Shown here piece after piece: positions 1 to 18,087 of a stretch of DNA of 18,087 bases (position 1 is the stretch's first letter; every line of letters begins with the position of its first letter). A program made the translations under genes and the position numbers. The stretch is taken from the NCBI GenBank assembly GCA_964012805.1, contig CAXGUD010000064.1, positions 1 to 18,087 on the forward strand, given 5' to 3'. Origin of the DNA: an uncultured Bacteriovoracaceae bacterium (GTDB lineage: Bacteria > Bdellovibrionota > Bacteriovoracia > Bacteriovoracales > Bacteriovoracaceae). Under the pieces are notes generated by a model that saw only the letters and a program-made list of their open reading frames with translations, made no database searches and was not told where the DNA came from.

Positions 1-1579
1 CTAGCACAAATTTGGCAGAATTTGCATACCTCATAAGGTTTTCAATAATTCCACAGACCTTTTCCGTAGCCTCAGATTGATAATTTATTTTTTTTTGTGT
101 TGGTAAATCTTCCATAACCCACTCTTCTGGCACTATTTCATCTAACTGTTTTTTTAAAGAAACAAGCTGATAAAGTTCCTTATCTAATTTTATTTTAAGG
201 TTTCTAAGCTCTTCTTTAAAAAAGCTTGAATTGTAAGTGTCAGATAAAGGTGAAATAAATTTTTCTAAAATCATTAATGATTCGTTAATGGAGTATTCAA
301 GGAATTTAGATATATTTTCATTCCCTTTTAATAAAAGAACTTCTTTTAAAAAGAAGTAACTTAACTGATCCATTTGGGTCTTTTTGTGAAAAGCCTCTGC
401 CTCTGAAAAGTCTTCAGCGATAATCATTAAGCGCTCAACTATATCATTTGAAGAACATAAGGGAGCATAAGATAATTTTAAAACCTTATCACTATTGGAT
501 TTAGGATTGAAAACTTTAACTCTTTTGGGAAGATTATCTTCTAAGGCCAAAAATTGAATTTTTGTTGTTCCAAAAATGAGGTCCAAGGTTGTTTTAAGTT
601 GAGTTAATTCCTGACTACCTCTTTTTAGACTTGAAAAAAGGAACTCAGAAACTCTTTTTCCTTGAATATCAAGCCCGAATATTTTTTCAGTATGATTAGA
701 GATAGGGCCATGAACTTTATAGTCCTTTTCAATTGAAAAAACTGCGTTTGTCATATTATCTAAATAATCAGTTACTTCTTTAGTCCGCTCCTTAACTTTT
801 TCTTCCAATTGAGAGTTAGATTCCTCTAATTCATAATTCATTTCAATGACTTTTTGAAAGTGAGAATTTGATTCCTCTTTTGATTTTTTCAAACTAAAAA
901 TCATTTCATTCATGGACTTTTCAACGACGGTAAACTCATTTATATCGCCTTTTTTAAACCCCAAATTTAAAACTTCCATATTTTCAAAATTAGTTTGCTT
1001 GGCAAATTCAACCAGTTTTTTAAATGGTTTCATTAACATGATTCTAAAAATAAAAACAAATAACAAAAGAAAAAGAAAGGCCTTAATTAGCTCAACAATT
1101 AGGGTTGATACGACTGCTCCTTTTAAAAAGCGGTTGATCAAATATTTTTGAGATGATACCAGCTTGACATAACCAACGACTTCCTCATTTTTATCAGCGG
1201 ACTCTTCATCTTTGTGCTTTATAAGCTCAGTAACTTCAATAAGAGTTTCCTCATCCGCAATCTCTCCGGACTTAACCATAATCTTTTTTTCGTCATCAAA
1301 TAAAATGACTCTTTCAATTCCTGGTAATGTCGAGACCCCCTCAAGGATTGCAACTTGTTGTTCTTCATCTTCAGAGAACATAGCAACACTTAGTGTTTTC
1401 TCAAAAGACTTTTTATACGCCCTTAACTCCCTTTTTAAAATTTTTATTTGCTCATTGTAAAGTTGATTCCAGTGAAAGCTATGGATAAAAATAGCAACAA
1501 AAATATATATAGAGAAAATCGTAGCGATTAATTTAATTCCTATAGATTTTTTTAAAGGAAAGACTTCTTTCTTTTCCAT
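1..1579 (-). CDS. Membrane sensor protein (2 TM + periplasmic domain + HAMP-like + coiled coil + PAS-like), probable sensor kinase; 3' end lies outside the window
   Basis: Absent from the ORF track because it has no stop in the window. Manual translation from ATG at 1579 is open to base 2: MEKKEVFPLKKSIGIKLIATIFSIYIFVAIFIHSF (TM1)...VELIKAFLFLLLFVFIFRIMLMKPFKKLVEFAK (TM2/HAMP start)...NEFTVVEKSMNEM...LEEKVKERTKEVTDYLDNMTNAVFSIEKD...RYANSAKFVL. The PAS-like segment aligns by eye with the 14794-17523 kinase. Confidence 0.9.
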   Translation of the reverse strand, partial: MEKKEVFPLKKSIGIKLIATIFSIYIFVAIFIHSFHWNQLYNEQIKILKRELRAYKKSFEKTLSVAMFSEDEEQQVAILEGVSTLPGIERVILFDDEKKIMVKSGEIADEETLIEVTELIKHKDEESADKNEEVVGYVKLVSSQKYLINRFLKGAVVSTLIVELIKAFLFLLLFVFIFRIMLMKPFKKLVEFAKQTNFENMEVLNLGFKKGDINEFTVVEKSMNEMIFSLKKSKEESNSHFQKVIEMNYELEESNSQLEEKVKERTKEVTDYLDNMTNAVFSIEKDYKVHGPISNHTEKIFGLDIQGKRVSEFLFSSLKRGSQELTQLKTTLDLIFGTTKIQFLALEDNLPKRVKVFNPKSNSDKVLKLSYAPLCSSNDIVERLMIIAEDFSEAEAFHKKTQMDQLSYFFLKEVLLLKGNENISKFLEYSINESLMILEKFISPLSDTYNSSFFKEELRNLKIKLDKELYQLVSLKKQLDEIVPEEWVMEDLPTQKKINYQSEATEKVCGIIENLMRYANSAKFVL

Positions 1580-1912
1580 TTTTTTCTTTTTAAAAAAAGT
1601 TTAGTTTAATCAATAACTTAATCGGTTTTATGAGATCAACTTGTTAGTTTAATTAAGTTTTTTTTTACTCAAAAAAAGAACATAATTATGAAATTTTAAA
1701 GTCTCTTATGTCACTTTTTTTTAAAAAAAATTAGGTCCATTTAATTTATTTCTTTTTATCATTAATTGAACTAAACCCTTAATTTTTTACAAATAACTTC
1801 CTCACTCTATAAATAAAATTAAAGTTTTTTTACTGACATTTTCACTTAACTAATAAATTACCATTTATATTTCAAATAGTACCTGACGATAGAGATACAC
1901 TAACAGGAACTT

Positions 1913-4681: not shown

Positions 4682-4739
4682 ATTAACTAATATTGACCTT
4701 CATTAAAAAAAAATTGTCCCTTACTCTAGTTGAAAAACC

Positions 4740-5474
4740 TTATTCTTTGACAAAATTAGAAATAATTTTATTGTAAGATCCTTCTTTTTTAATTTGTATT
4801 AGGGCAGTGTTAAATCTTTTAATAACATTTGTTTTTTTCATAGATTTATGAAAGGCAATATAGGCTGCGTTTCTAGCAACTGGGGTATTTTTTTCTTTTA
4901 CCCTCGCTGCCCATTTCTTTTTTTCAAGAATCATTTTTGCTGAAACACTGTCCATCACAACCCCATCAACTCTTTCTTTTAGTAATAAGGTAAAACTTTG
5001 CTCTCCATTACTAGTTTCTATGACCCTAAAAGTCTTTTTATTTTTCTCTTTATCAAATTCAGTTCCATAGCTCCAGCCTCTCATTAAGGCCAAAACTTTA
5101 CCCTTTAAGTCTTTCAATGATTTAAACTCAAATGTTGAAGGCTTTTTAACAAAAAGAAGAAGCTCCTCTTGGTATATAGGACTTGAATAATCAAAAATCT
5201 TCATTCTTTCTGCATTTTTATAAATTCCGCCAACTCCCCATTTCCCTTTTTTTGCAAGCCGTATAACTCTGGCCCAGGGCTTGGGTTCTAGTGTAACGTT
5301 GACTTCCATTTTCTGAAAAATTTCATCCAAAAGCCTGGCATAAAGCCCTTGAATCTTTCCTTTGCTTTCATACATATAAGGAGGGTATGCGGCATCTAAA
5401 GCAATAACTTCGTTTGCATAAGAACTATAGGATAACAAAAAAAAGAAAGCCAAAATTAACCGAAGTTTAGTCAT
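4740..5474 (-). CDS. Family-3 (polar amino acid type) periplasmic substrate-binding protein
   Basis: Signal peptide ending SYA. Motifs AYPPY, PWARVI, YKNAER...FDYS, SLKDLKGK, RGWSYG, RVDG are typical of SBP_bac_3. Strong RBS AGGAGGAGG. No adjacent permease or ATPase gene. Confidence 0.88.
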   Translation of the reverse strand: MTKLRLILAFFFLLSYSSYANEVIALDAAYPPYMYESKGKIQGLYARLLDEIFQKMEVNVTLEPKPWARVIRLAKKGKWGVGGIYKNAERMKIFDYSSPIYQEELLLFVKKPSTFEFKSLKDLKGKVLALMRGWSYGTEFDKEKNKKTFRVIETSNGEQSFTLLLKERVDGVVMDSVSAKMILEKKKWAARVKEKNTPVARNAAYIAFHKSMKKTNVIKRFNTALIQIKKEGSYNKIISNFVKE

Positions 5475-5581
5475 ACCTCCTCCTTTTAATTATGCTTATT
5501 ATAACCCATAGTTTTTCTTAAATTGAAGCTTTGAAATTTTTCCAATTTTTTAGACTCTTAAAGTCAGGTAACGAAATTCAT

Positions 5582-5615
5582 AAAAAAAACCCTCACCTAA
5601 AAAAAGTGGTGAGGG
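5582..5615 (-). terminator. Rho-independent terminator of the 5646-6515 gene
   Basis: 8-bp stem CCCTCACC (5590-5597)/GGTGAGGG (5608-5615), followed on the minus strand by 8 U, 30 nt past the stop codon. Confidence 0.8.
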
Positions 5616-5645
5616 CATTATTTTTCAAGAATTATAAAAAGCTAC

Positions 5646-6515
5646 TTATGGAAAAGAGAAACCTTTCTTAAAGTGGTGAGTGATAGTATAGATAACAACA
5701 AAGCCATCGGACCTTTTCCCCTCGGATAAGGTTTCAGTCCAGTTTCCGTCCACAGAATCCATCTCTCCGTTATCAGCAGTAAACATTCCACCGAAAGCCG
5801 TGTAGCCAAAGTCCAAACCAAAAAGCTTAAAGCCACTGCTTACACCAGCTGCCATAGTTGTCGATTTACTTCCTGACGTTTTCATTTCAGTTGAGTCATA
5901 GATAGCTGCAATCGAATAGCTATCATTTAATTTGTAAAAAAGGGCCCCAAACATGGTGTTTCTGGTATCCTCTGCACCAGTTCCATAAATATTGTAACTC
6001 CACTCAAGCATTTCTTTAGTTGCATCACCTTCATTTTTCATCTTTTGGGACTCATAACTAAAGTAGCCGTTTAAACCATCGACTAATTTTCCAAGAGGAA
6101 TTATCGAACCTACACTCCAAAACATACCAGAGTAACTTGACCCAGTATCAACTTTAGTTGCATCGTACTTTTCATTGATTCCTTCCTCCACAACGCTAGT
6201 AGATGACTGGCCAACACTAATCTTTAAAACGGAAACTGGATGAATATCGAGCCTTAACTTATATCTTGTATTAAAAGCAAAAGAATAATCAACGCCTGCT
6301 CTAACATAACCATACATTGGATCTTTATCTTTCGCCCCTGGTTCAGGAACCTTTCCCCATAAACCCAAGCTGTAACCAGCGCTTAGGTTTGCTGATGGTA
6401 AACCGCTTCTTCCTGAAAACTTTATTGAAGCATCTGCAGCACTCTTAGCATAAATAGAGGGAGAGGCCATGGCCCCTAGCAAACACAAAGTTAACAATTT
6501 CTTTTTTAGATTCAT
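5646..6515 (-). CDS. Exported hypothetical protein, probable outer-membrane beta-barrel
   Basis: Start moved from 6569 to ATG 6515 (AAGGA RBS; MNLKKKLLTLCLLGAMASPSIYA signal peptide). Gly/aromatic-rich alternating strands (LSAGYSLG, GYVRAGVDY, GYFSYES, FGYTAFGG, VIYTITHHF). No family recognised. Confidence 0.7.
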   Translation of the reverse strand: MNLKKKLLTLCLLGAMASPSIYAKSAADASIKFSGRSGLPSANLSAGYSLGLWGKVPEPGAKDKDPMYGYVRAGVDYSFAFNTRYKLRLDIHPVSVLKISVGQSSTSVVEEGINEKYDATKVDTGSSYSGMFWSVGSIIPLGKLVDGLNGYFSYESQKMKNEGDATKEMLEWSYNIYGTGAEDTRNTMFGALFYKLNDSYSIAAIYDSTEMKTSGSKSTTMAAGVSSGFKLFGLDFGYTAFGGMFTADNGEMDSVDGNWTETLSEGKRSDGFVVIYTITHHFKKGFSFP

Positions 6516-6667
6516 AAAACAGTCCTTTTGTTTGTTATAACTAAGATCATTTACTTTTCTTAGAATCAACAGTTTTCATTTCGTCCCATAAACCTTTTTT
6601 CTTAACCTTAAATTCACTGAAATATTTTGATTTAGGCCTCTCTTTATTACTTGAGTACTTTGCTCGC

Positions 6668-6825
6668 CTCCTTTTTCCGTAACCAAAAAGGAGCAACTGC
6701 CTGATTAGGCAAAAAAAACTCTATTTTATGAGAGTTCATGAGGATAGGATGTGGTTCAGGAGCAGGATAGGTTTCCTCTCTCAGCTAGAAAAGGGAAATG
6801 GGGGAAAACCTCCCCCATTTTTTTT
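6668..6825 (+). ncRNA. Candidate structured small RNA with clustered AGGA motifs (tentative)
   Basis: Three hairpins, four AGGA motifs in 6741-6767, and a terminal hairpin followed by a + strand U-tract, with no + strand CDS present. Confidence 0.3.
6796..6825. terminator. Rho-independent terminator, possibly bidirectional
   Basis: AAATGGGGGA (6796-6805)/TCCCCCATTT (6811-6820) stem. T-run 6818-6825 on +; weaker UUUCCCUUUU tail on -. It lies just past the START gene stop at 6836. Confidence 0.8.
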
Positions 6826-6835
6826 ATCTTTGTGA

Positions 6836-7498
6836 TTAAGGCATGCTTACGTTTTGACCGCTGTACTTAGAAGCTTGCTTCTCTAAACGGTTAAGAGTAT
6901 TAACCGGCCAGCTTTTATAAATAATATTTGAAAACCAGTTTGGAATAAGACCTTTAGGGTCAATTCTGACTGAAACTGTTACCTCTGTCTTATTGTCTTC
7001 AAGATACTTCAGGTTATAAATGGCAAAAAGCAGATCCATTCTAACGCCAACACTATCTGCAGCCGGCTTTTTCCCATGGGTTGTCGACTTAAGAGTAACG
7101 ATAAGGTTTTTACCATCCCTTTCCGTTTGTGTTTTGACTACCTGGTCCCTATTAGTAATAGGCCACGGTGTATCGTACGCTTGATATGTTACACTTGAAT
7201 GAGGAACACCTAAACTTTTGGCATCCTCAAGGGGTTCTGAAATATAAAGTCTGTCTACCCACTCTTTCCTAAAATTAGGGTCTTTCTGACTAAGAACCCA
7301 ATAGATTTGTTTAATGCTCTTATTAAACACTTTTGTCCCACGGAAGGCCTTAAGAGACTCTCCAGCATAAGTCTTTGTAAAAAGGTTAACCCCTTTTTTC
7401 CCTCCAGCTGCGTCCCAGCCGTCTGAAGCCAAGCCTAGCTGGGAAAAGCTCAGTAAAAAAGCGATCAATAAAGTAACAAAGCCCTTTGTGATTCTCAT
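6836..7498 (-). CDS. Secreted START/SRPBCC-domain lipid-binding protein
   Basis: Signal peptide. START hallmarks: W..., PWPITNRD, and DPKGLIPNW before the C-terminal helix. AAGGA RBS. Confidence 0.85.
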   Translation of the reverse strand: MRITKGFVTLLIAFLLSFSQLGLASDGWDAAGGKKGVNLFTKTYAGESLKAFRGTKVFNKSIKQIYWVLSQKDPNFRKEWVDRLYISEPLEDAKSLGVPHSSVTYQAYDTPWPITNRDQVVKTQTERDGKNLIVTLKSTTHGKKPAADSVGVRMDLLFAIYNLKYLEDNKTEVTVSVRIDPKGLIPNWFSNIIYKSWPVNTLNRLEKQASKYSGQNVSMP

Positions 7499-7636
7499 TA
7501 AAAATCCTTTTGTTAAAAGTTTGCTTTTAATTTTATTTTAAATCTTATTAAAAATCCTGATTCTTTTAATTGGAATATTGAAACACTTATTGAAAAAGAA
7601 GAAAAGCTTTTCTTGCTTAATAAAAGTTAAAAAAAT

Positions 7637-8869
7637 TTAAAGGCTTTTACCCTCTGAAGCGTCCTGTCCATAAACTTCTATGAGAAGCTTATCAAACCAT
7701 AAAAGCCTTTTATATCCGAAATGTCCTCCCGAAGGAAGCATCATCAAATGATTTGTAGCAAGAAGCTTTGAATTCACTTCCTCGTTGATCATATCGTCAA
7801 TAGAAGATAGTATCCGGATATCCTTCCTCCCATTTTCGATGGCCCTAAAAATCCAATAGGAAAGCTTCCTTTCTTGACTGGACCTAAGGTCTTTAAAGCC
7901 CTTTGAATCAATGAGGCCAAGCGCATCTTGAAAAGTAAGCCCTTCTAAAAACTTTCTTGTTTCCGCTCTCCCCTCCGGGAGGCCTAAACTCTTAACACTA
8001 CTGTTATAAGAAAGGAGCATTCTTTCTAACTTCATTTTAAAACCAAAGTCCGCAAAAACGCCCAAAGACTTTTCTTTAATCCTTTGACCAACCTGATCAT
8101 TTTTTTCAAGTCTATTTATTTGAAAACTTGTCATAAGATAACTTGGAATATTCCCAAATGTTTTATCCTTTTTGGCCTCATCAAGTATGGAATCAAGTTT
8201 TTCAAAGGTTTTAACAAAATCAAAGGGTGGTGAATAAACATGAAGACCTTTATTAAACAAGGGGGCTTTTTCAGCGGAATCGAGGGCGTAAATTATGGAG
8301 CCTAAAAAGCCTCCATAGCTTTGCCCAAAAAGAGTAATATTCTGGTTCACTTTTCCTTGCTTCACTAATTCCTGGTGAACTTTTTTGATGGCCTCATAAT
8401 AGACCCTCCCTTGAGTTTTTAGGTCGAAAAATGGGAATTGAGGGGACCTTGAAATAGAGCAATCACAAATGAAGTTTTCGAAAGAAAGTACCCTATAACC
8501 TAAACGAATAAATCTTTTATGAAAGTTTTTTGTGATATTTGAGAAAAGCTTTGAAAAAGACCCCCCGATATATACAAGAAGGGGTCTTTTTTGTTGATCA
8601 CCATACTCCTCCCCCAAAAGGTAAGGAATTTCCCCAGTTTGAAAGTGAGAGCTAGGAATAAAGTATTTTCTTATTTTATTGTTTTGTTTTATGGGTTGAT
8701 CGTATTGAACTCTAGAGATGTGGGATTTAATCGATGTTATGTAGGGGTCTGTAAGCTCAGGGTTATACGTTTCTAAGAGAGCCCTTTCTTTCGCCTTCCA
8801 ACCTGAGGCACGAGTGGAATTTAAATTAAAAATACAAAAAAGGCACACTAGTAAAAATCTAATTTTCAT
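7637..8869 (-). CDS. Secreted alpha/beta-hydrolase (lipase/esterase-like)
   Basis: Signal peptide. Nucleophile elbow GQSYG, acid in SSIDD, His in GGHFG, in canonical Ser-Asp-His order. Confidence 0.78.
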   Translation of the reverse strand: MKIRFLLVCLFCIFNLNSTRASGWKAKERALLETYNPELTDPYITSIKSHISRVQYDQPIKQNNKIRKYFIPSSHFQTGEIPYLLGEEYGDQQKRPLLVYIGGSFSKLFSNITKNFHKRFIRLGYRVLSFENFICDCSISRSPQFPFFDLKTQGRVYYEAIKKVHQELVKQGKVNQNITLFGQSYGGFLGSIIYALDSAEKAPLFNKGLHVYSPPFDFVKTFEKLDSILDEAKKDKTFGNIPSYLMTSFQINRLEKNDQVGQRIKEKSLGVFADFGFKMKLERMLLSYNSSVKSLGLPEGRAETRKFLEGLTFQDALGLIDSKGFKDLRSSQERKLSYWIFRAIENGRKDIRILSSIDDMINEEVNSKLLATNHLMMLPSGGHFGYKRLLWFDKLLIEVYGQDASEGKSL

Positions 8870-9070
8870 AGTTTTCCCTTGTAAATTTCAAAAGGGATTT
8901 TTATCAATAATTCGATCACTCGGCAAGAGTATGCCAATTCAGTTTTTTGTTTTTGGGAATAAAGAGGTGAAACTGCAACACGAAGCAAAAAAAAAGATAG
9001 GCAGTGCCCAGTAAAGCCATTTTACAAGGAACCGCAGAGAAAACTAGTCCCCTTAGACGGACTTTATCCT

Positions 9071-9475
9071 TTATTTTTTGCCTTCCACCAATGCATTCAC
9101 GATACCGATAAAATGAGGAGCTTTTTCTTCTGAAACAGGTTTTATAAACCAGGCCCTTACACCGAGCTGTTTTCTCTTTTTATCCATAATATTTTCATGT
9201 TTTTTATCTGTAATAAACTCAGTGGTAAGCATTATCTTTGGTGCGTCCACGGCCATTTTATCGTTGGCCAGACGTTCCAACATTTCGATGCCTGTCATAT
9301 TTGGCATATTTAAATCTGTTATAATCAGATGGCAATCAGGATTCTTTTTTATGACCTCGATTCCCTCAACGCCATCACTGGCCTGTTCGACTACAAACCC
9401 TGCATTCACCAAATACCTTTGTAGAGTTTCCCGAACTAGGGGGTCATCGTCTATTGTTATTATTTTAAATGACAT
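9071..9475 (-). CDS. Single-domain CheY-like response regulator
   Basis: Start moved to ATG 9475 (AAGGGA RBS). Acidic pocket TIDDD, phosphoacceptor IITDLNMP, MLTTE, WFIKP. No output domain. Confidence 0.9.
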   Translation of the reverse strand: MSFKIITIDDDPLVRETLQRYLVNAGFVVEQASDGVEGIEVIKKNPDCHLIITDLNMPNMTGIEMLERLANDKMAVDAPKIMLTTEFITDKKHENIMDKKRKQLGVRAWFIKPVSEEKAPHFIGIVNALVEGKK

Positions 9476-9618
9476 AATTCCCTTTCTTTTCATCGGCAGT
9501 GCCAATGGCCTCAGCCATTGTTGAAACTTTTTTAATTAAATCACAAAGTTTTTGCTTTCAATAACCAATTTCAATTTTTAATTTTTAATCCCTTTTACTT
9601 TGTTTTTTTATAACCCGC

Positions 9619-10200
9619 TTAAAGCCTCTCCTCAATCATAAAAATTCGGTCTTGCCCCCAATACATTTCATCGCCTAAAAACATCGTTGGAGCTCCAAAA
9701 AGACCTTTCTCCACAGCTTCTCCCGTCCGTTTTTTAAGTTCGTCTTTAACTGACTGATCACTGGAAAGAGCATGGATTTTATTAAAGTTAAAGCCGCCTT
9801 TTTCAATAACTTCTTTAACCGTTTCCGGGTCTCCCATATTTTTTTTATCACGCCAGAATGCCCTGAAAAGAAGATCATTAAAATCGACAAAGCGCTTATC
9901 TCCCATCATCCCAACTGCTCCTCTCATTAAATTGAGAGTATTAATAGGAAAGTAAGGATTAAAATCGTAATCAAGACCATACCTTTTAGCGTAGCGTATA
10001 ATATCCTCAAACATATATTTCCCTTTCGCAGGTATATTTGCAGGAGCACTGTTTCCTATGGCCTTAAAAATTCCTCCTAAAAGGATGGGCCGGTAATCGA
10101 TTTTTAACTTCCCCTCTTCCTCCAACTGCCTCAATTTATAAAAGGCCAAGTAGCAAGTAGGGCTCCCAAAATCATAATAAAATTCTACTACTTTTGACAT
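9619..10200 (-). CDS. 2-hydroxychromene-2-carboxylate isomerase-like / GST-kappa (DsbA-fold) protein
   Basis: Start moved to ATG 10200 (GGGGAG RBS). Motifs FYYDFGSPTCYLA, PILLGGIF, FPINT, GLFGAPT, WGQDR are characteristic of the HCCA isomerase/GST-kappa family. Confidence 0.9.
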   Translation of the reverse strand: MSKVVEFYYDFGSPTCYLAFYKLRQLEEEGKLKIDYRPILLGGIFKAIGNSAPANIPAKGKYMFEDIIRYAKRYGLDYDFNPYFPINTLNLMRGAVGMMGDKRFVDFNDLLFRAFWRDKKNMGDPETVKEVIEKGGFNFNKIHALSSDQSVKDELKKRTGEAVEKGLFGAPTMFLGDEMYWGQDRIFMIEERL

Positions 10201-10210
10201 ATTCTCCCCT

Positions 10211-10936
10211 TTACCATTTTTCGCACCAAGGACGCAGGTCTGACTCGAAAGTCCAAGCATCAGGACTTTGAAGGTGTATTTGATAATAAAATTCCGCTAT
10301 AGAGTCTGGTTTAACAATATCATCTGTTTGCCTATTTGGTTTCATTTGAGGAAGAATTTGTCTTACAAATTCAGTGTCAACTGCTGCATCAATCACAACA
10401 TGGGCGACATGAACTCCCTGAGGCATAATTTCCCTGGCAAGACTCTGGGCCACAGCACGGAGGCCGCTTTTGGCGCTTGCAAAGGCTCCAAAGCCTGCGG
10501 CCCCTCTCAAACTGGCCGTCGCCCCTGTAAAGATGATTGTTCCTTTTTTTCGTGGGACTAAGTATTTCGCGGCTTCACGTCCCGTGAGAAAACCACCAAA
10601 GCAGGCCATTTCCCAGATTTTATAAAACTTCTTCGTTGGCGTTTCGGCAATTTTCATGGGGACGTTAGCACCCACATTAAAAACCACCACTTCAAGTGGC
10701 GCGATGTCGGCTTCAATTTTTGAAAAGAGGCCTATAATTTCATCTTCCTTACGAGCATCACACTTTATGGCCTAGGCCTTGTGGCCCTCTTTTTGAAGTT
10801 CGGAAATAACGTTTGCAATCTTTTCCGGATTCCTCCTAACACCTACCGTATTATAACCGGCCCTGGAAAACCTTTTTAAAATGGCCGAACCAATCGCATC
10901 TCCTGCTCCAACAATTAAAGCTGACCTCTCACTCAT
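10211..10936 (-). pseudogene. Short-chain dehydrogenase/reductase (atypical FxxxK subgroup) interrupted by one in-frame TAG at 10774-10772
   Basis: ATG 10936 with GAGGA RBS gives MSERSALIVGAGDAIGSAILKRFSRAGY...EGHKA*AIKCDARKEDE...LEVVVFNVGAN..., in frame with the 10211-10690 track ORF. 241 codons including the TAG. Gly-rich motif GAGDAIG, FTGATASLRG, AFASAK. Confidence 0.85.
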
Positions 10937-11246
10937 AAAGTTTCCTCAATCTAAAGCTGAAAGTGGGAAGAAAAAATATTTCACTTTTTGCTCTCTTCTC
11001 ACCTTTCAGAGAAGAGCACCAATGGAATTTTCTCATATTATTTTTATTTTTAGGATAGTTTCTTAGATATTTCTTTTTATAATTGAAATTGAAAGGGCCC
11101 TCATAACTTTTTTTAAAAGATTCTACTAAGTCTATTCCTTTTGAAAATACTTTCAATTGGACCAATTATTTTTCTCGTACTTTTGAAGAATGAATTGTAT
11201 TTCTTATGTCTTTCATGACAAAGACTTTCTCTTACAGGTGGTAGAA

Positions 11247-12419
11247 ATGGATATTGAAAAAATAAGAAACAATACTTTAGGTTGCAACCAAGTAGTCCAT
11301 TTTAATAATGCTGGCAGCTCCCTTCCACCAAACTGTGTCACAGAAACCGTCGTCAATTACCTTAAAGAGGAAGGTCAAAATGGTGGCTACGAATCTTTTG
11401 AAAAAGAACTTCCCCGTCTGGAGTATGTTTACGACCAAGTTTCTGGCCTTATTAATGCAGAGAGAGAAGAAATTGCTTTAATGGAAAGTGCCACAGTGGC
11501 ATGGAATTCCATTTTCTATTCCTTAGATTGGAAAAAAGGCCGAGTGGTTTTAACAGGTCAAACTGAATATGCCAGTAATTTCATTTCTTACCTCAAACTT
11601 AAAAAAGAAAGGGGAATCATTATTGAAGTCCTTCCTCAAAGTGAAGAAGGTGATGTATGCCTTAAGGCCCTTGAGGCAAGACTTCAAAAAGGCGGCGTGA
11701 CTTTAATTTCCCTTTCCCACATACCGACAAACGGTGGTCTCATTCAACCTGTGTCAAAAATTGGTCTCCTCGCCCAAAAATATAAGGTCCTTTTCCTTTT
11801 GGATGCGTGCCAAAGTGTAGGTCAATGTCCCATTGATGTCCAAAAAATTCAATGTGACTTTTTAACTGCGACTGGAAGAAAGTATTTAAGGGGTCCCAGG
11901 GGTACAGGCTTCCTCTACGTCAAAAAGAAACACTTTTCCTGGCTTAAACCTTTTACACTTGACCTCTATTCGGCGAACCTTACGTCCAAGGAAACTTACG
12001 AAATTAGAAAAGATGCGAGAATGTTTGAAACTTGGGAATCATCACCTGCTTTAAGATTAGGTCTTGGAAAGGCTTGTGATTACGCCCAAAAACAGGACAT
12101 TTCCAAAACCTTTGAAAGAATTCAAAAATTAGGTCACACACTTAGAAAAGAGTTAGAAAAAGTTGAAGATTGCCTGGTCCACGACATAGGAAAAGAAAAG
12201 GGAGGTATAGTTTCTTTTAGTTTGAAAGGTAAGAATCCAATCAAAGTCAAAGAGGAGCTCTCCAAAAGAAAGGTCAATACCTCAGTAAGCTATAAAACAT
12301 CAACATTTTGGGATATGGAAGAGCGTGGTTTAGGCGATATATTAAGGGCCTCTGTTCACTATTATAATACAGAAGAGGAAATCCTCTCCTTTATCAATAT
12401 TTTAAAGTGCCTTCCATAA
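11247..12419 (+). CDS. Class V PLP-dependent enzyme, probable EgtE-like hercynylcysteine sulfoxide C-S lyase
   Basis: Start moved to ATG 11247 (AGGTGG RBS; MDIEKIR). Motifs HFNNAGSS, DACQSVGQ, PLP-Lys in ATGRKYLRGPRGTG, RASVHYYNT. Lacks the SufS RxGHHCA / IscS SSGSAC catalytic Cys loop. Abuts egtD. The fold is secure; the EgtE role is contextual. Confidence 0.8.
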   Translation: MDIEKIRNNTLGCNQVVHFNNAGSSLPPNCVTETVVNYLKEEGQNGGYESFEKELPRLEYVYDQVSGLINAEREEIALMESATVAWNSIFYSLDWKKGRVVLTGQTEYASNFISYLKLKKERGIIIEVLPQSEEGDVCLKALEARLQKGGVTLISLSHIPTNGGLIQPVSKIGLLAQKYKVLFLLDACQSVGQCPIDVQKIQCDFLTATGRKYLRGPRGTGFLYVKKKHFSWLKPFTLDLYSANLTSKETYEIRKDARMFETWESSPALRLGLGKACDYAQKQDISKTFERIQKLGHTLRKELEKVEDCLVHDIGKEKGGIVSFSLKGKNPIKVKEELSKRKVNTSVSYKTSTFWDMEERGLGDILRASVHYYNTEEEILSFINILKCLP

Positions 12420-13391
12420 AGCGTTTAGAAAGTATCTTTTTGAATCCGTAAAATGATCAACAACTCCAAATTGGCATTTTTCAGACAACTCAACACTCTC
12501 CTGCGGAGTATACTTCCACGAATACTCCGTATGGATAGGTTCATGGGCCCTAAAGAAAAATGTCCTGTCATCCTCTTTAAAAAGAACTTTTTGATTTTTT
12601 GTGGAAATAAGATAACTCTCCATCGTTCCTTTAATTGGATCATAAGTTCCAAAATGCTTAAAAGATTCAAGGTTAAAATTGGAGCTTAGCTCCCTATTCA
12701 TTCTTTCCAATAAATTGAGATTAAACTGAGAAGTCAGTCCCTTGGAATCGTTATAGGCCTTCAAAAGAACCGAAATGTCTTTTTTTAAATCAAGCCCAAT
12801 AAAAAGAAAGTCATCAAGGTTTAAAGCATTTCTAATTTCTTTTAAAAAAAGTGTCGCCTGATCCTGAGGGAAGTTTCCTAGATTTGACCCCAGAAAAAGA
12901 ACGAGGTTCCTTCCCTTTTTATGTTCCCTAACCCATTTAAGCCCTGGTGAGTACTCCCCTACGACGCCAAAAGTTTTGAGTTCGGGGAAGTTTTGTTTGA
13001 GGTCATCGAGAAGACTTTTTATCGCAAAAGAGGAAATATCGATGGGGATATACTCAACATCCCTTTTCGATTTTAGGATTTCTTCGAGGAGAACCTTTGT
13101 CTTCTGCCCATCACCAGCTCCAAGCTCAATAATATTAATTTTTCCGTAGGCAGGAATTTTGGAGATAATGGACTCTTTATGGTTTGCAAAGATATTGTAT
13201 TCACACTTTGTAGGATAGTATTCATCAAGGTTTGTAATATCAGAAAAGATTTGACTTCCTTGATCGTCATAAAAAAACTTTGAAGGCAGGCTTTTTGGAC
13301 TTTTGGAAAGACCGTTGAACACCTCTTCTTTAAAAGCCGTCTTCTGATCGTCTTTTCCCTTTTCTTCAGAAAGGATAACCGTATTATTCAT
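12402..13391 (-). CDS. egtD: L-histidine N-alpha-methyltransferase (ergothioneine biosynthesis)
   Basis: Motifs KSLPSKFFYDDQGSQIF, EYYPTKCE, ELGAGDGQKT (SAM binding), FLGSNLGNF, AYNDSKG..FNLNLL, IHTEYSWKY. Starts 14 nt after the egtB stop, with AAGGA RBS. Confidence 0.95.
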   Translation of the reverse strand: MNNTVILSEEKGKDDQKTAFKEEVFNGLSKSPKSLPSKFFYDDQGSQIFSDITNLDEYYPTKCEYNIFANHKESIISKIPAYGKINIIELGAGDGQKTKVLLEEILKSKRDVEYIPIDISSFAIKSLLDDLKQNFPELKTFGVVGEYSPGLKWVREHKKGRNLVLFLGSNLGNFPQDQATLFLKEIRNALNLDDFLFIGLDLKKDISVLLKAYNDSKGLTSQFNLNLLERMNRELSSNFNLESFKHFGTYDPIKGTMESYLISTKNQKVLFKEDDRTFFFRAHEPIHTEYSWKYTPQESVELSEKCQFGVVDHFTDSKRYFLNALWKAL

Positions 13392-13405
13392 AAAGAAATG
13401 TCCTT

Positions 13406-14677
13406 TTAATGATCTTCAGCAAGCCTTATCCCGCCGAAACACCACCTCTTTTCGGGGCGATAAAAATTTCTATAGGTTTTTCTAATATGGTCCTTTGGAG
13501 TTGCCAGGCAACCACCTCTAAGCACCATCTGCCCACTCATAAACTTTCCATTGTATTCGCCCATAGGCCCTCCCAACCTCCTATAACCAGGGTAAGGAGA
13601 ATAACTCGAATCAGTCCACTCCCACGTGCTTCCAAAGAGGTCATAAAATGGCGGTTGGTTATTTACTGGAGGCGCTAGTTGAAAGTCCTCCCTTTCTAAA
13701 AAGTGACCTTCTATACTTTCACTCTCAGTTAAAGAAGCGGCCATCTCCCACTCCTTTTCCGTTGGAAGCCTTTTTCCTGACCACCGTGCATAGGCGGAAG
13801 CCTCAAAATAGGAAACATGGCACAAAGTTTGGTGAGGGTCAACAGTTTGAACACCTTGAAGACCAGCTACTAACCAATCCCCTTCTTTTTGAAACCAGTA
13901 AAGGGGTGCCTTAATCTTTTCACGGTTGATAAAATCCCAGCCATCGCTATGCCAAAAGTTAGGGTTTTCATAGCCACCCTCGCTCATAAACTCTAAAAAC
14001 TCTCCGTTAGTTACAGGATGCGTAGAGAGCTTAAAAGGATGAAGGTAGGCCTTGTGGAGAGGTCCTTCATTATCATAAGAAAAGTTATCCCCATCATTTC
14101 CGAAAGAATAAAGTCCTCCAGAAAGCGAATGGAGTTTTGGTCGACAAGGTCTAGAATGCTCAGAATCCTCACAGGAGGAAGGGGTTTTATTATTTTCCAA
14201 ATAAAAAGGGACCAGAGGGTTTTCGGCCAAAATATATTTAATATCCATGACTAGGAGCTCTTGATGCTGCTTTTCATGCTCAATGCCAAGAGTCGTCATT
14301 TTTTTAATATACTTAAAGTTTTCTTCCGGCGCCTTGTCAATAAGAGCAACCATTTTTTCATCAACTTCTTTTCTATACTCGTAAATCTCTTTAACTGTTG
14401 GTCTAGAAAGGTTTCCTCGTTCCCCTTGATTCCAGTGCTCCCCCAGAGATTTGTAATAAGAATTAAAGAGTGTGTGGAAAAGAGGGTGAAATGGTGTTGC
14501 TTCGTGCAGTATAAACTTTTCAAAAAACCATGTTGTGTGACCTAAGTGCCACTTCGGAGGGCTTACATCAGGGTGAGGCTGGACCACATAGTCTTCTACT
14601 TCCAAAGGAAGGCAAAGCTTAACGGATTGTTTCCGGGTCTTTAAAAAGTGTTCTATGAGAACCTTTTTATCTAACAT
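13406..14677 (-). CDS. egtB: Ergothioneine biosynthesis sulfoxide synthase (DinB + FGE-sulfatase-like domains)
   Basis: Iron-ligand His motifs SPPKWHLGHTTWFFE and EHEKQHQELL. NSYY and RGNLSRP. FGE-like HVSYFEA, RLPTEKEWE, WEWT, YNGKFM, RNFY, GIRLA. Confidence 0.95.
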   Translation of the reverse strand: MLDKKVLIEHFLKTRKQSVKLCLPLEVEDYVVQPHPDVSPPKWHLGHTTWFFEKFILHEATPFHPLFHTLFNSYYKSLGEHWNQGERGNLSRPTVKEIYEYRKEVDEKMVALIDKAPEENFKYIKKMTTLGIEHEKQHQELLVMDIKYILAENPLVPFYLENNKTPSSCEDSEHSRPCRPKLHSLSGGLYSFGNDGDNFSYDNEGPLHKAYLHPFKLSTHPVTNGEFLEFMSEGGYENPNFWHSDGWDFINREKIKAPLYWFQKEGDWLVAGLQGVQTVDPHQTLCHVSYFEASAYARWSGKRLPTEKEWEMAASLTESESIEGHFLEREDFQLAPPVNNQPPFYDLFGSTWEWTDSSYSPYPGYRRLGGPMGEYNGKFMSGQMVLRGGCLATPKDHIRKTYRNFYRPEKRWCFGGIRLAEDH

Positions 14678-14793
14678 TTAGTATTCTCTGTGTAAGGTAT
14701 CCTTAAGGGGATCACCCTAGAAAAGTGGGGGTCATAAGTAAATGAATGGTGAGTTAATCAAACAAAAAGCGGAAATAATGCATTGAAAAAAAT

Positions 14794-17523
14794 TTAACCG
14801 GTCTTTTTTTCAAAGTGAGGAAGAGAAATCATAAAGCTTGTTCCGATATTTTGACCTTCTTCAATAATAATTTTTCCCCCTAGGGATTCTATATTTTTTA
14901 TGACGACGTCCATCCCAATTCCTCTGCCTGAGGTTTCTGTCGTTTCGTCTTTAGTCGAAAAAGAAGGTCTAAAAATTAGGTGCTTAATTTCAGAAGAGTT
15001 CATTTCTTCTGCTTCATCTTCCGTTAAAATAGAGTTTGCAATGGCCCTTTTTAAAACCTTTTCTTCATTAATCCCTTTCCCATTGTCTTTAATATTTATT
15101 TTAATCTCTTCAAAGGTCTCTTTAATTGAGACATTGATGTCTCCCTTGGTTTCAATACCGTGATCTACACAATTGGTGAGGAGGTGAATAAAAGATTCTT
15201 TTAACATCGAAATGCTTTTTTCTGGAAGGTAGGAGTCATCACCAGAGACATTAAAAGTCACGGCCTTATCAAGTTTTTTAGCGGTATTGATGACAATATT
15301 TTGAAGGTCAATGGCCATCTTTTTGATATTAATATTGGACAACCTCTCAAGAGTTGAAATGATGGTTTCGTAATCTTTGGATTTAATAAGTTCTGTAACC
15401 TCTTTAACAGTGTCTGTAAGCACAGATTTTTGAACTTCTATTGTATCGCTGACATCATTGAAATCAGGATTATCAGGGTCGTAGATATCCCCATAAATTT
15501 CTTTAACAGTTTCTAGGGCATCGTCAAAAGAATTCTTTAAGGAAGCTCTTTGAATCTCAAAGTCTTCTTCAAAGCTCTTTTTATGAACACCCTCTTCGAA
15601 AAGAGTTATCATTTTACTTTCAATTTTATGAATGTCGCTTGCTAAAAAGTTAAGTCCATAAAGCCTTGAGAGGCCTTTTAACGTATGAACGGACCTAAGC
15701 ACAATGCCTCTATCTTTAAAGTGGTCTTTTAATTCTTTAAGTCTTGCATAGGATTCATAAAAACAATGGGTCAGTGAATCTCTAGAATTCGCTACAATAG
15801 ATTGAAGCTTTTCAATTTTAAGAGCGTTTTGCTGACGCTGCTTTTTGATGTCTGCTTCTAGTTTTTCTAATTCAGTCACATCCTCAATGATAAACATGAT
15901 CTTTTCGCAAAGACCATTGTCATAAATAGGACTCATCGATGCCTTAAGACTTTTCTTTTCATCTTCATCACCTTGGATTAAAAACCTCGTAGGGAATGTA
16001 TCTCCCACCATAAGCCATTGAAGGTCATCCGCATGGAAAACAATGCTAAAACCAAATTGTATAGAAGAATACTCATTATCTTCCGGGTCTAATTCTTTGT
16101 AAAGAGTGTTCCAAATAGATTTCCCTTCAATCTTTTCACCAAAAATTTTTTCACTAAATTGTGAAACAGGATCAATGATAATGCCATCAGGGTTTATGGC
16201 AAAAACGGCTTGGGCCATATTATTAATAAGAATTTCAATTTTTTCAACATACTCTCTTAGCTCTTTTGTTTTATCTTTTACCCTTCTCTCTAGTAATTGG
16301 TTAACATCAGCAAGCATCGCAGAGTGTTGTTGCGCGTCCTTTCTTAAATTATTAATTAAGCTTGCAAGACCCAAAGAAAAGAAAAGTATTTGAACAATAA
16401 TCGCCACATAAATGGCGTTATCGGAAAGAAAGTTAGTGGGTAAAAGCCCAAGCCCCTGACCAAGCTTAATAAAGCCTCCTGAAATAACAGCTAAAAAGCC
16501 ATAGGCAACATATTTTGAAGATTTATGCTTTCTTAGAAAGGACCCTACTCCCCACCAAGCACAAAGTCCTAGCGGTATACCAATGGTAAAAATAATAACC
16601 CTAATCCCAAACCAAAAAGGTAAAAAGAAAGCACAAATTGTATAAATTAAAGCTAATCCCAAGGAAACCCTAAAAAGAACGGTGTTGTACTTAGGTTGGC
16701 TTTTAATTTCCAGAAAATCGTAAAGGAAAAGTGTTAGGCCGCCACAGGCACCACCTAATCCTAAAAGCATTCCATGATTATTAAACCAGATGAGTGTTGG
16801 TAAAACATAAGCACCAAATCCGGTAATAGCGACAACAAGACAAAGAACTCCTAAAGTGAAAACTGTGTAATAGAGATATGAAACCATTCTTGTAGAAAAA
16901 TAAATGAGGGCATGATAAACGGCCATGATAATCATCACTCCATAAAGAACGGAGTAAAGAAACATCCCCTGGTCCCGGTTTTCGTTATAGGTCTTTTCGG
17001 AATAAATTTGCAAGGGGATTTGCATAGCCGCCGTATTTTTAATTTGTAAATAATAAGTTGAAGATTCTTTAGGATAAATTTTAAAAGGAAAAAAGCGGTG
17101 GCTTATTTTCTTTTTAGAAGCGGGTATTTGATCACCACTCACTTCTTTTACCCATTCACCCTTTAATTTTTGATAGAGAGTAATTTTATCTATGCCTGGA
17201 AATTCATAGATAAAGTAATAAAGGGAATTCTTTTCACTTTGATTTGTTACCGTAAACTTTACCCAAAACGTTGAAAAGGTAAAACCCATATTAGGTGAAT
17301 CTTTTTTAGTCGTTATATATTTTTGGGGATGGTTTCCTTTTAAAATATCATCAAAAGTTAAGTCACCTTTTTTATCTTCTAAAATAGAAAGATATTTTCC
17401 AATTTTAACGGATTTTGTTTTGTCATCTAATACAAGCGTTTTAGCATTTACAGAAAAGGATCCCAGCACAAAAAAAATGCTACAAATGATTAATTTTATA
17501 AGGGTAAAAATGCTTTTCCTCAT
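14794..17523 (-). CDS. 7TM-DISM receptor fused to PAS-like, HPt and CheA-type HATPase domains (no CheW domain)
   Basis: Likely start ATG 17523 (signal peptide ending VNA; RBS weak; track start is 17556). DISMED2-like ILEDKKGDLTFDDI, NMGFTFSTFWVKF, SGDQIP. 7 TM helices. HPt motif RSVHTLKGLSRLYG. CheA-type ATPase HLLTNCVDHGIE, DNGKGI, LIFRPSFST, SGRGIGMDVV. The protein ends right after the ATPase. Confidence 0.9.
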   Translation of the reverse strand: MRKSIFTLIKLIICSIFFVLGSFSVNAKTLVLDDKTKSVKIGKYLSILEDKKGDLTFDDILKGNHPQKYITTKKDSPNMGFTFSTFWVKFTVTNQSEKNSLYYFIYEFPGIDKITLYQKLKGEWVKEVSGDQIPASKKKISHRFFPFKIYPKESSTYYLQIKNTAAMQIPLQIYSEKTYNENRDQGMFLYSVLYGVMIIMAVYHALIYFSTRMVSYLYYTVFTLGVLCLVVAITGFGAYVLPTLIWFNNHGMLLGLGGACGGLTLFLYDFLEIKSQPKYNTVLFRVSLGLALIYTICAFFLPFWFGIRVIIFTIGIPLGLCAWWGVGSFLRKHKSSKYVAYGFLAVISGGFIKLGQGLGLLPTNFLSDNAIYVAIIVQILFFSLGLASLINNLRKDAQQHSAMLADVNQLLERRVKDKTKELREYVEKIEILINNMAQAVFAINPDGIIIDPVSQFSEKIFGEKIEGKSIWNTLYKELDPEDNEYSSIQFGFSIVFHADDLQWLMVGDTFPTRFLIQGDEDEKKSLKASMSPIYDNGLCEKIMFIIEDVTELEKLEADIKKQRQQNALKIEKLQSIVANSRDSLTHCFYESYARLKELKDHFKDRGIVLRSVHTLKGLSRLYGLNFLASDIHKIESKMITLFEEGVHKKSFEEDFEIQRASLKNSFDDALETVKEIYGDIYDPDNPDFNDVSDTIEVQKSVLTDTVKEVTELIKSKDYETIISTLERLSNINIKKMAIDLQNIVINTAKKLDKAVTFNVSGDDSYLPEKSISMLKESFIHLLTNCVDHGIETKGDINVSIKETFEEIKINIKDNGKGINEEKVLKRAIANSILTEDEAEEMNSSEIKHLIFRPSFSTKDETTETSGRGIGMDVVIKNIESLGGKIIIEEGQNIGTSFMISLPHFEKKTG

Positions 17524-17810
17524 ACTGACTTTTTCGGAATTTTCATCCAAAAACAAAATAAAATGAGGTGAATTTAGACCTAAAAAATTACTATATGATT
17601 AAATAGTTTTTATTTAAATTATTATAAAAACCTTAGGGATTTAAAAACCAATTTTTTTAAAAGTCATTGAGTAAGTAAATAAAAAAAGGTTATTAGTATA
17701 AGAAAAACGTACAAAACGCCCTTTCATAGTCCAAAAGGTTTATATAACTAGGCCTAACCTATTTTTTTAAGGGTTTAGAAAAGGTAAAAACTCGTAAAGA
17801 AAGCTTACTC

Positions 17811-17924
17811 TTAGTTTCTGCAGTAAGTATTCCAAGAAATGCATTTAGACTTTTTTGAAGAGCAACTGCTCATTCCCAAGCTTAGTATTAAAACTGACAA
17901 AACTAATATAACTTTGTTTTTCAT
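17811..17924 (-). CDS. Very small lipoprotein (37 aa)
   Basis: ATG 17924 preceded by GAGGGTGGAGAG (strong RBS). MKNK + hydrophobic core + lipobox-like MSS-C21. The 90-aa track ORF extends it upstream without support. Confidence 0.72.
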   Translation of the reverse strand: MKNKVILVLSVLILSLGMSSCSSKKSKCISWNTYCRN

Positions 17925-18087
17925 AACGCTCTCCACCCTCAATTGAGTCATGATTAAGCGCCAAAACAACTTATTAAAAACCGCTGTGATTTGACACTCA
18001 ACATTTAATTGCTTCATGTCACATACATCAAATTTTTTGAATGTGGAATAAAAAGCTTGCTGCTTTGAATAAAATACATTCAAATCC

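Follow-up and report, generated by a model that had tools for sequence, protein, structure and literature searches.

A sensor-fused, CheW-less CheA-type histidine kinase, likely of class III, and its genus-wide multiplication in a Bacteriovoracaceae bacterium

CheA-type histidine kinases are understood almost only within chemoreceptor arrays, and a genome usually holds few of them. The stretch of DNA analysed here, 18,087 nucleotides from an uncultured Bacteriovoracaceae bacterium (GenBank assembly GCA_964012805.1, contig CAXGUD010000064.1, positions 1 to 18,087; hereafter the window), carries on its minus strand, at 14794..17523, a gene in which a CheA-type ATPase is joined to a membrane receptor. 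What kind of kinase is this, and does it stand alone? The protein is likely built to the design of the class III histidine kinases (HKIII). Taken singly, it has nothing unusual about it as a representative of a class that already has a name. What appears new, judged by the literature searched, is the scale and genomic context of its expansion, the class itself being known: most sensing in the source bacterium likely goes through a kinase type that is normally rare.

The coding sequence is an open reading frame (ORF) for 909 residues that starts with an ATG at 17523; all coordinates of its parts lie on the minus strand. An alternative upstream TTG would give 920 residues, and five of the six closest near-full-length homologues, among the matches listed, begin near the ATG position. 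A hydropathy scan identifies a hydrophobic N-terminus (residues 1-27, core 5-23; 17443..17523), likely a signal peptide that would be cleaved. The extracytoplasmic 7TMR-DISMED2 sensor (residues 42-175; 16999..17400; PF07696, E 2.6e-30) precedes the 7TMR-DISM_7TM membrane domain (residues 188-387; 16363..16962; PF07695, E 3e-33), the order of a 7TMR-DISM receptor. The latter match spans profile positions 3-203 of 205, and the hydropathy scan gives five peaks above 1.6.

The cytoplasmic part was modelled with AlphaFold2 from a 70-row alignment (residues 400-909; mean predicted local distance difference test score 88.6, predicted TM-score 0.61). The model begins with a long helix, which leads into a PAS-like domain; another helix connects this to a four-helix HPt, and a loop and two short helices separate the HPt from the ATPase. 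The long helix after the last transmembrane segment (residues 388-435, modelled as helical over 401-435; 16219..16362) is likely a coiled-coil signalling helix. The PAS-like domain (residues 436-548; 15880..16218) is a five-strand alpha/beta unit with a weak match to TIGR00229; paralogues match PAS_9, and a local hidden Markov model (HMM) finds the module in 70 of the 74 CheW-less paralogues described below. A linker helix without His, seen in both model and alignment (residues 550-577; 15793..15876), leads to the HPt bundle of CheA-P1 type (residues 581-677; 15493..15783), which is seen in the model and, at a score below cut-off, by Pfam. The two short helices follow (residues 699-727; 15343..15429), and then the CheA-type (P4) ATP-binding domain (residues 733-902; 14818..15327) with intact N, G1, F and G2 boxes and a Pfam HATPase_c match at residues 775-902 (E 9.4e-16). 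The ORF ends with a tail and stop codon at 14794..14817, leaving no CheW-like P5. Pfam finds no CheW, HisKA or H-kinase_dim match in the protein at E<=0.1, and there is no DHp domain with an H-box as in class I kinases. No MCP-type methylation consensus (MCP, methyl-accepting chemotaxis protein) is present in the kinase, by a pattern match that makes for a weak test. The original prediction of a 7TM-DISM sensor fused to an HPt and a CheA-class ATPase, with neither CheW nor HisKA, is thus confirmed by Pfam, with Hpt below its cut-off. The domains it listed are right, the PAS-like domain was overlooked, and the tail after SFMISLP counts seven residues rather than eight.

The motifs on which that prediction was built (NCVDHGIE, IFRPSFST, SGRGIGMDVV and HTLKG) are all found in the kinase where they had been placed, with the His codon at 15687-15685. 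This residue, His613 (15685..15687), is the predicted phospho-acceptor, accompanied by Lys616, His632 and Glu635; across the 70 rows of the alignment these are conserved in 69, 69, 56 and 70, respectively. The same H/K/E set is used by CheA P1. The ATPase boxes are nearly invariant, and the two other near-invariant His residues sit in the N-box helix of the ATPase. The sole conserved candidate phospho-His therefore lies in the HPt, in keeping with the claim that the phosphosite belongs to an HPt and not to a HisKA domain.

Structural comparison leads to CheA. The best solved relatives of the ATPase are all CheA proteins (E 6.5e-29, versus 4e-4 for the first class I kinase), as are the best NCBIfam matches of the kinase part, and fold searches place CheA P4 and P3P4 at the top among kinase domains. 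The ATPase superposes on 1i58 with Z 20.2 and a root-mean-square deviation (rmsd) of 3.0 over 176 aligned residues. For CheA P3P4 (4xiv) the values are Z 20.4 and rmsd 7.0 over 210 residues. The two-helix element, about 30 residues long, overlaps P3 in part (rmsd 5.6-7.0), and in the model it may be a shortened P3 remnant. The HPt of a paralogue superposes on Thermotoga maritima CheA P1 (1tqg; Z 14.6, rmsd 2.0, 100 residues). The spacing differs: the phospho-acceptor His is 171 residues from the N-box in the window kinase and at least 206 in all 81 canonical CheAs compared. According to an excerpt of Berry, Andrianova and Zhulin (PMC10542144), CheA is sensor-less by definition, and CheW domains occur in 100% of 13,673 CheAs. 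The window kinase shares a P4-type ATPase and a P1-type HPt with CheA of T. maritima (1b3q, 4xiv, 1tqg); in contrast, it has no P2, full P3 or P5, and carries its own sensor (DISMED2, 7TM and PAS-like).

Phylogeny separates the two. In a tree rooted on class I kinases (a subset of 63 rows, among them an outgroup of 12 class I domains), the 51 CheA-type domains all fall together (SH-aLRT 99). Within them the 23 CheW-bearing CheAs form a group of their own (support 92-94), with the window kinase outside it. ATPase fragments covering fewer than 150 profile positions were left out, and the CheW-bearing proteins from the database were thinned to one in three; the background rows come from a database locus search on a generic motif and are, among the matches listed, mostly canonical CheAs. 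A 258-row FastTree agrees, and five CheW-less database rows fall on its CheA side. Forcing the window kinase and its nearest paralogue to join either of two CheA groups from the family is rejected by the approximately unbiased (AU) test (p-AU 0.041 and 0.010). Because of these groupings and rejections, we conclude that the kinase, judged by its sequence, would work with CheA chemistry yet is no CheA. The earlier idea of a receptor built into a CheA-type kinase that would need no array holds up on three counts: the ATPase groups with CheA-type domains rather than with class I kinases, the sole conserved candidate phospho-His lies in the HPt, and the genome has no detectable MCP. The tree position does not fit a CheA that lost P5.

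The HKIII class was reportedly first named by Wuichet and Zhulin in 2010 and described by Adebali et al. in 2017. We take its members to have a sensor of their own and an HPt just before a CheA-type ATPase, with neither a CheW domain nor a dimerisation domain, and presumably to work with single-domain regulator and CheX partners in genomes with pilT. The window kinase has N-terminal sensory domains, its HPt comes directly ahead of the CheA-type ATPase, and it lacks CheW. A single-domain regulator is present for the family, only in trans for the window gene, and a pilT match (TIGR01420) lies above cut-off on contig C22 of the source genome. Where the HKIII pattern is a compact kinase-CheY-CheX operon, the window gene is an orphan. 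Further differences from that picture are the 7TM-DISM input, 74 copies in a single genome, 40 co-expanded regulators, the lack of a soluble MCP partner, and the existence of long two-HPt, hybrid and ATPase-less derivatives. The receptor-fused CheA-type design is itself already known, and HKIII is a class already named in the literature (Adebali et al. 2017, J Bacteriol 199:e00218-17, PMID 28484044, cited in an excerpt of PMC6501615). Our literature search, which covered few subscription journals, returned no paper on HKIII biochemistry or on an expansion of this kind. We consider it probable that the window kinase belongs to HKIII, that it autophosphorylates at His613 as predicted, and that it passes the phosphate to CheY-type regulators that have multiplied with it.

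Several observations weigh against this assignment. The trees contain no labelled HKIII reference rows, and after rooting the CheW-less rows do not form one supported clade (two changes). The Hpt match (residues 590-644; E 6e-4) scores 20.4 bits, under the cut-off of 24.6, and the only PDB sequence match of the HPt is a weak one to CheA3 P1 (3kyi, E 0.07). The short two-helix hairpin with its partial P3 match leaves the absence of a dimerisation domain less than clean. On the side of the partners, 62 of the 74 kinases have no regulator of the TTE subfamily (see below) within 600 bp, the profile for that subfamily was built from the source genome and favours close kin, and neither a regulator nor CheX is encoded next to the window gene.

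The window kinase is no one-off. The source genome (G000) comprises 4.47 Mb on 130 contigs and is rated 100% complete and 1.79% contaminated. From it, an iterated HMM search recovers 75 CheA-type ATPase ORFs, 74 of which score at least 135 bits and one 78; the next scores 35. CheW and H-kinase_dim occur in just one of them, and the other 74 are CheW-less. Among these 74, the HPt His is kept in 69, a 7TM-DISM match is found in 35 (15 of them also with DISMED2), and a mostly weak CHASE5 match in 10; some seven are incomplete, either as fragments or because the contig ends within them. Together they occupy 4.7% of the genome and outnumber its 38 HisKA matches about two to one. Redundancy in the assembly is ruled out as the source of these copies by the identity between nearest-paralogue ATPases (39-75%, 67 rows) and by the low contamination.

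The expansion is genus-wide and local. At E<=1e-30, with canonical CheA included and at most 81 candidates scored per genome, the ATPase profile matches 74 candidates in the source genome, 47 in G001 (72% complete) and 62 in G002 (68% complete), both of the same genus; the counts are 0-10 in 22 further genomes of the family and 0-3 in 16 more remote ones. A phylum-level comparison, coarse with its 13 candidates scored per genome, gives 13 of 13 for the source genome and a highest value of 7 among 250 others. A true orthologue pair between genomes is 94% identical. The closest G001 homologue of the window kinase (52%) sits between two genes that are adjacent in the source genome, where no kinase lies, and kinase genes therefore turn over. 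Close named homologues come from Bdellovibrionota and Bacteriovoracales; that of Pseudobacteriovorax shares all four Pfam domains, and by these matches the source likely belongs to the Bacteriovoracales. The expansion shows that a cell can rely on CheA chemistry as its chief means of sensing, here in a CheW-less form that has multiplied alongside a single subfamily of CheY; the bacterium is flagellated and has no detectable chemoreceptor.

The kinase family has diversified in several directions. In 22 long kinases (e.g. L026, contig C3, 15604-19101) an insertion of about 380 residues separates HPt and ATPase, with a second His-bearing HPt in 20 of the 22, followed by an all-helical region that has no Pfam match in L026. 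Two kinase classes occur in one chain in L033 (C4, 109627-113685), L072 (C32, 4814-8608) and L073 (C32, 8612-12400), class I hybrid kinases in which HisKA, HATPase and REC are followed by a C-terminal CheA-type module. A sister family of 25 ORFs carries the family's PAS-like module and no CheA-type ATPase (e.g. C12, 37242-39740; C4, 73974-76520 and 76680-79187; C24, 17367-19904). Eighteen of these have in common a helical tail that lacks the HPt His. In hhalign this tail aligns, at probability 74.7 and E 2.6e-5, to the region from the end of HPt1 through HPt2 of the long kinases, and on their sequences we regard them as candidate pseudo-kinase receptors. One member lies in the window (2..1579, minus strand; cut by the contig end), with a weak CHASE5 sensor, the same PAS-like module and a His-less helical tail.

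The likely partners are single-domain CheY-type regulators. The source genome has 89 single-domain receivers, and a TTE motif is present in 39 of them; the profile built for this subfamily counts 40 in the source genome, 27 in G001 and 43 in G002, against 0-2 in 38 other genomes. A TTE regulator lies within 600 bp of 12 of the 74 kinases (10 without two overlapping cases), whereas 2000 random placements give a mean of 0.77 and a maximum of 5. Outside the genus, the profile scores highest on a regulator of G023 that shares a locus with a CheW-less kinase, and the next best matches are CheYs beside canonical CheA in other bacteria. The genome has 18 CheX-like ORFs, and CheX lies within 1.5 kb of 5 of the 74 kinases. 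With neither kind of gene adjacent, the partner of the window gene is inferred from the family. The closest G002 homologues stand head-to-head with a single-domain regulator whose TTE profile match is weak. One further correction to the original prediction is that the window does contain a gene of CheY type: the TTE regulator nearest to the kinase, at 9071..9505 on the minus strand and 5.3 kb downstream, is a candidate partner in trans and likely not co-transcribed with it. A signalling island elsewhere in the genome (L090, C3, 8000-27999) combines CheX, an HPt-like protein, a classical CheY-like gene, an HD protein, a TTE regulator, a long kinase, a solute-binding protein and two CheX-kinase pairs. 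A regulator-kinase locus of G023 (L171) is related to this island and has MCPs beside it.

The DISMED2 and 7TM input of the window kinase is also that of RetS and LadS in Pseudomonas aeruginosa, which are hybrid kinases of class I and contain HisKA and receiver domains. RetS senses mucin glycans via DISMED2, according to an excerpt of a preprint (bioRxiv 10.1101/2020.03.31.018614). In the window kinase, an extracytoplasmic ligand, by analogy possibly a glycan, would bind DISMED2 and likely tune the predicted autophosphorylation of His613. The 7TM bundle would move the helix-PAS-helix stalk, probably within a dimer held together by the stalk as in class I sensors, and the stalk would set how often HPt and ATPase meet, standing in for control by a receptor array. 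The phosphate on His613 would likely pass to TTE CheY-type proteins encoded elsewhere, from which CheX would remove it, and the phosphorylated CheYs would bind protein targets, most plausibly of the motility or predation machinery. The window gene would then be one interchangeable sensor unit in a genus-wide many-to-many network. Such a family offers dozens of natural kinase-regulator pairs in which to study P1/P4 switching by a membrane sensor without P5, cis versus trans phosphorylation, and specificity among many paralogues.

A bolder and doubtful proposal is that an array-free network took the chemoreceptors' place across the genus. About 70 receptor-CheA fusions, many of them 7TM-DISM, would feed about 40 CheY-type regulators that control movement by flagella or pili and the search for prey, all without MCPs, CheW or methylation, with the ATPase-less paralogues as modulating receptor subunits. 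The alternative to be weighed, that the expanded kinases replaced chemoreceptor arrays by phosphorylating FliM-binding CheYs and thus support chemotaxis without arrays or receptor methylation, seems unlikely to a similar degree. It gains from the gene content of the source genome, which has flagellins (nine flagellin-N matches), FliM with the N-terminal motif LSQDEVDALL, six CheY-like genes of the classical kind and CheX. Neither Pfam (0 of 13 candidates) nor tblastn and HMM searches with the MCP domains of six relatives reveal an MCP in it. No CheR match above cut-off is found among its ORFs under 600 residues, the site that corresponds to the che cluster of G002 is contiguous and lacks the cluster, and the TTE regulators resemble CheA-linked CheYs next best. 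The FliM motif has a CheY-binding role. However, six family genomes (G003, G006, G008, G011, G014 and G022; 94-99% complete) have FliM and no MCP, CheW or CheA-type kinase match, and are apparently flagellated without chemotaxis arrays. The motif is kept in five of the six, the five that parsed, so keeping the switch needs no such kinase, and the motif is ruled out as support for flagellar control. Moreover, G002 retains its che cluster and two MCPs despite its 62 kinase matches, and no adaptation module is evident.

Two observations could suggest that the window protein is a degenerate, catalytically dead receptor acting only as scaffold, phosphatase or phosphate sink: the ATPase is short of about 11 residues that follow DHGIE in CheA, and the HPt score is low. 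The 18 related ATPase-less, His-less proteins show that dead members exist. However, all N, G1, F and G2 box residues and the HPt H/K/E set are retained, and full-length homologues share 56-69% identity over the cytoplasmic part, which makes this reading improbable.

PF01584 finds CheW at two places in the source genome, both on contig C58 (12280-15327), where the sole CheW-bearing CheA (L081; REC, HPt, H-kinase_dim, ATPase and CheW) is followed by a 297-residue CheW protein (L089). REC-starting CheAs resembling it also occur in G023 and G004. That the window kinase is a recently truncated canonical CheA with an added sensor, still needing CheW or this one CheA in trans, is very improbable: the structural match puts the likeness of its ATPase to T. 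maritima CheA P4 at 35%, and the genome does retain this pair, but its tree position outside the canonical CheAs, the AU rejections, the missing P5 surface for CheW binding, the ratio of 74 kinases to one CheW protein, and the 47 kinase matches in G001 (72% complete) with no CheW match all speak against it.

One metatranscriptome yields two 151-nucleotide contigs on the ATPase region, too little to count, and a promoter scan returns 13 sites versus 11.8 expected, which is no evidence. Directly downstream of the kinase and on the same strand (12402-14677) lie an egtB-like gene (DinB_2 and FGE-sulfatase) and an egtD-like gene (Methyltransf_33), likely for ergothioneine synthesis, with an Aminotran_5 gene converging on them. 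A link between these genes and the kinase is ruled out by their absence beside its closest homologues. At 9619-10690 on the minus strand, a DSBA-like gene is preceded by a short-chain dehydrogenase ORF that covers profile positions 81-192 only, possibly a split or mis-started gene. A Toxin_trans match on the gene at 5646-6569 (E 0.09, no stretch passing) is treated as noise. A second 7TM-DISM receptor lies at 1913-4681 on the plus strand, on a class I hybrid kinase (HisKA, HATPase and REC), so the same type of input occurs on both kinase classes.

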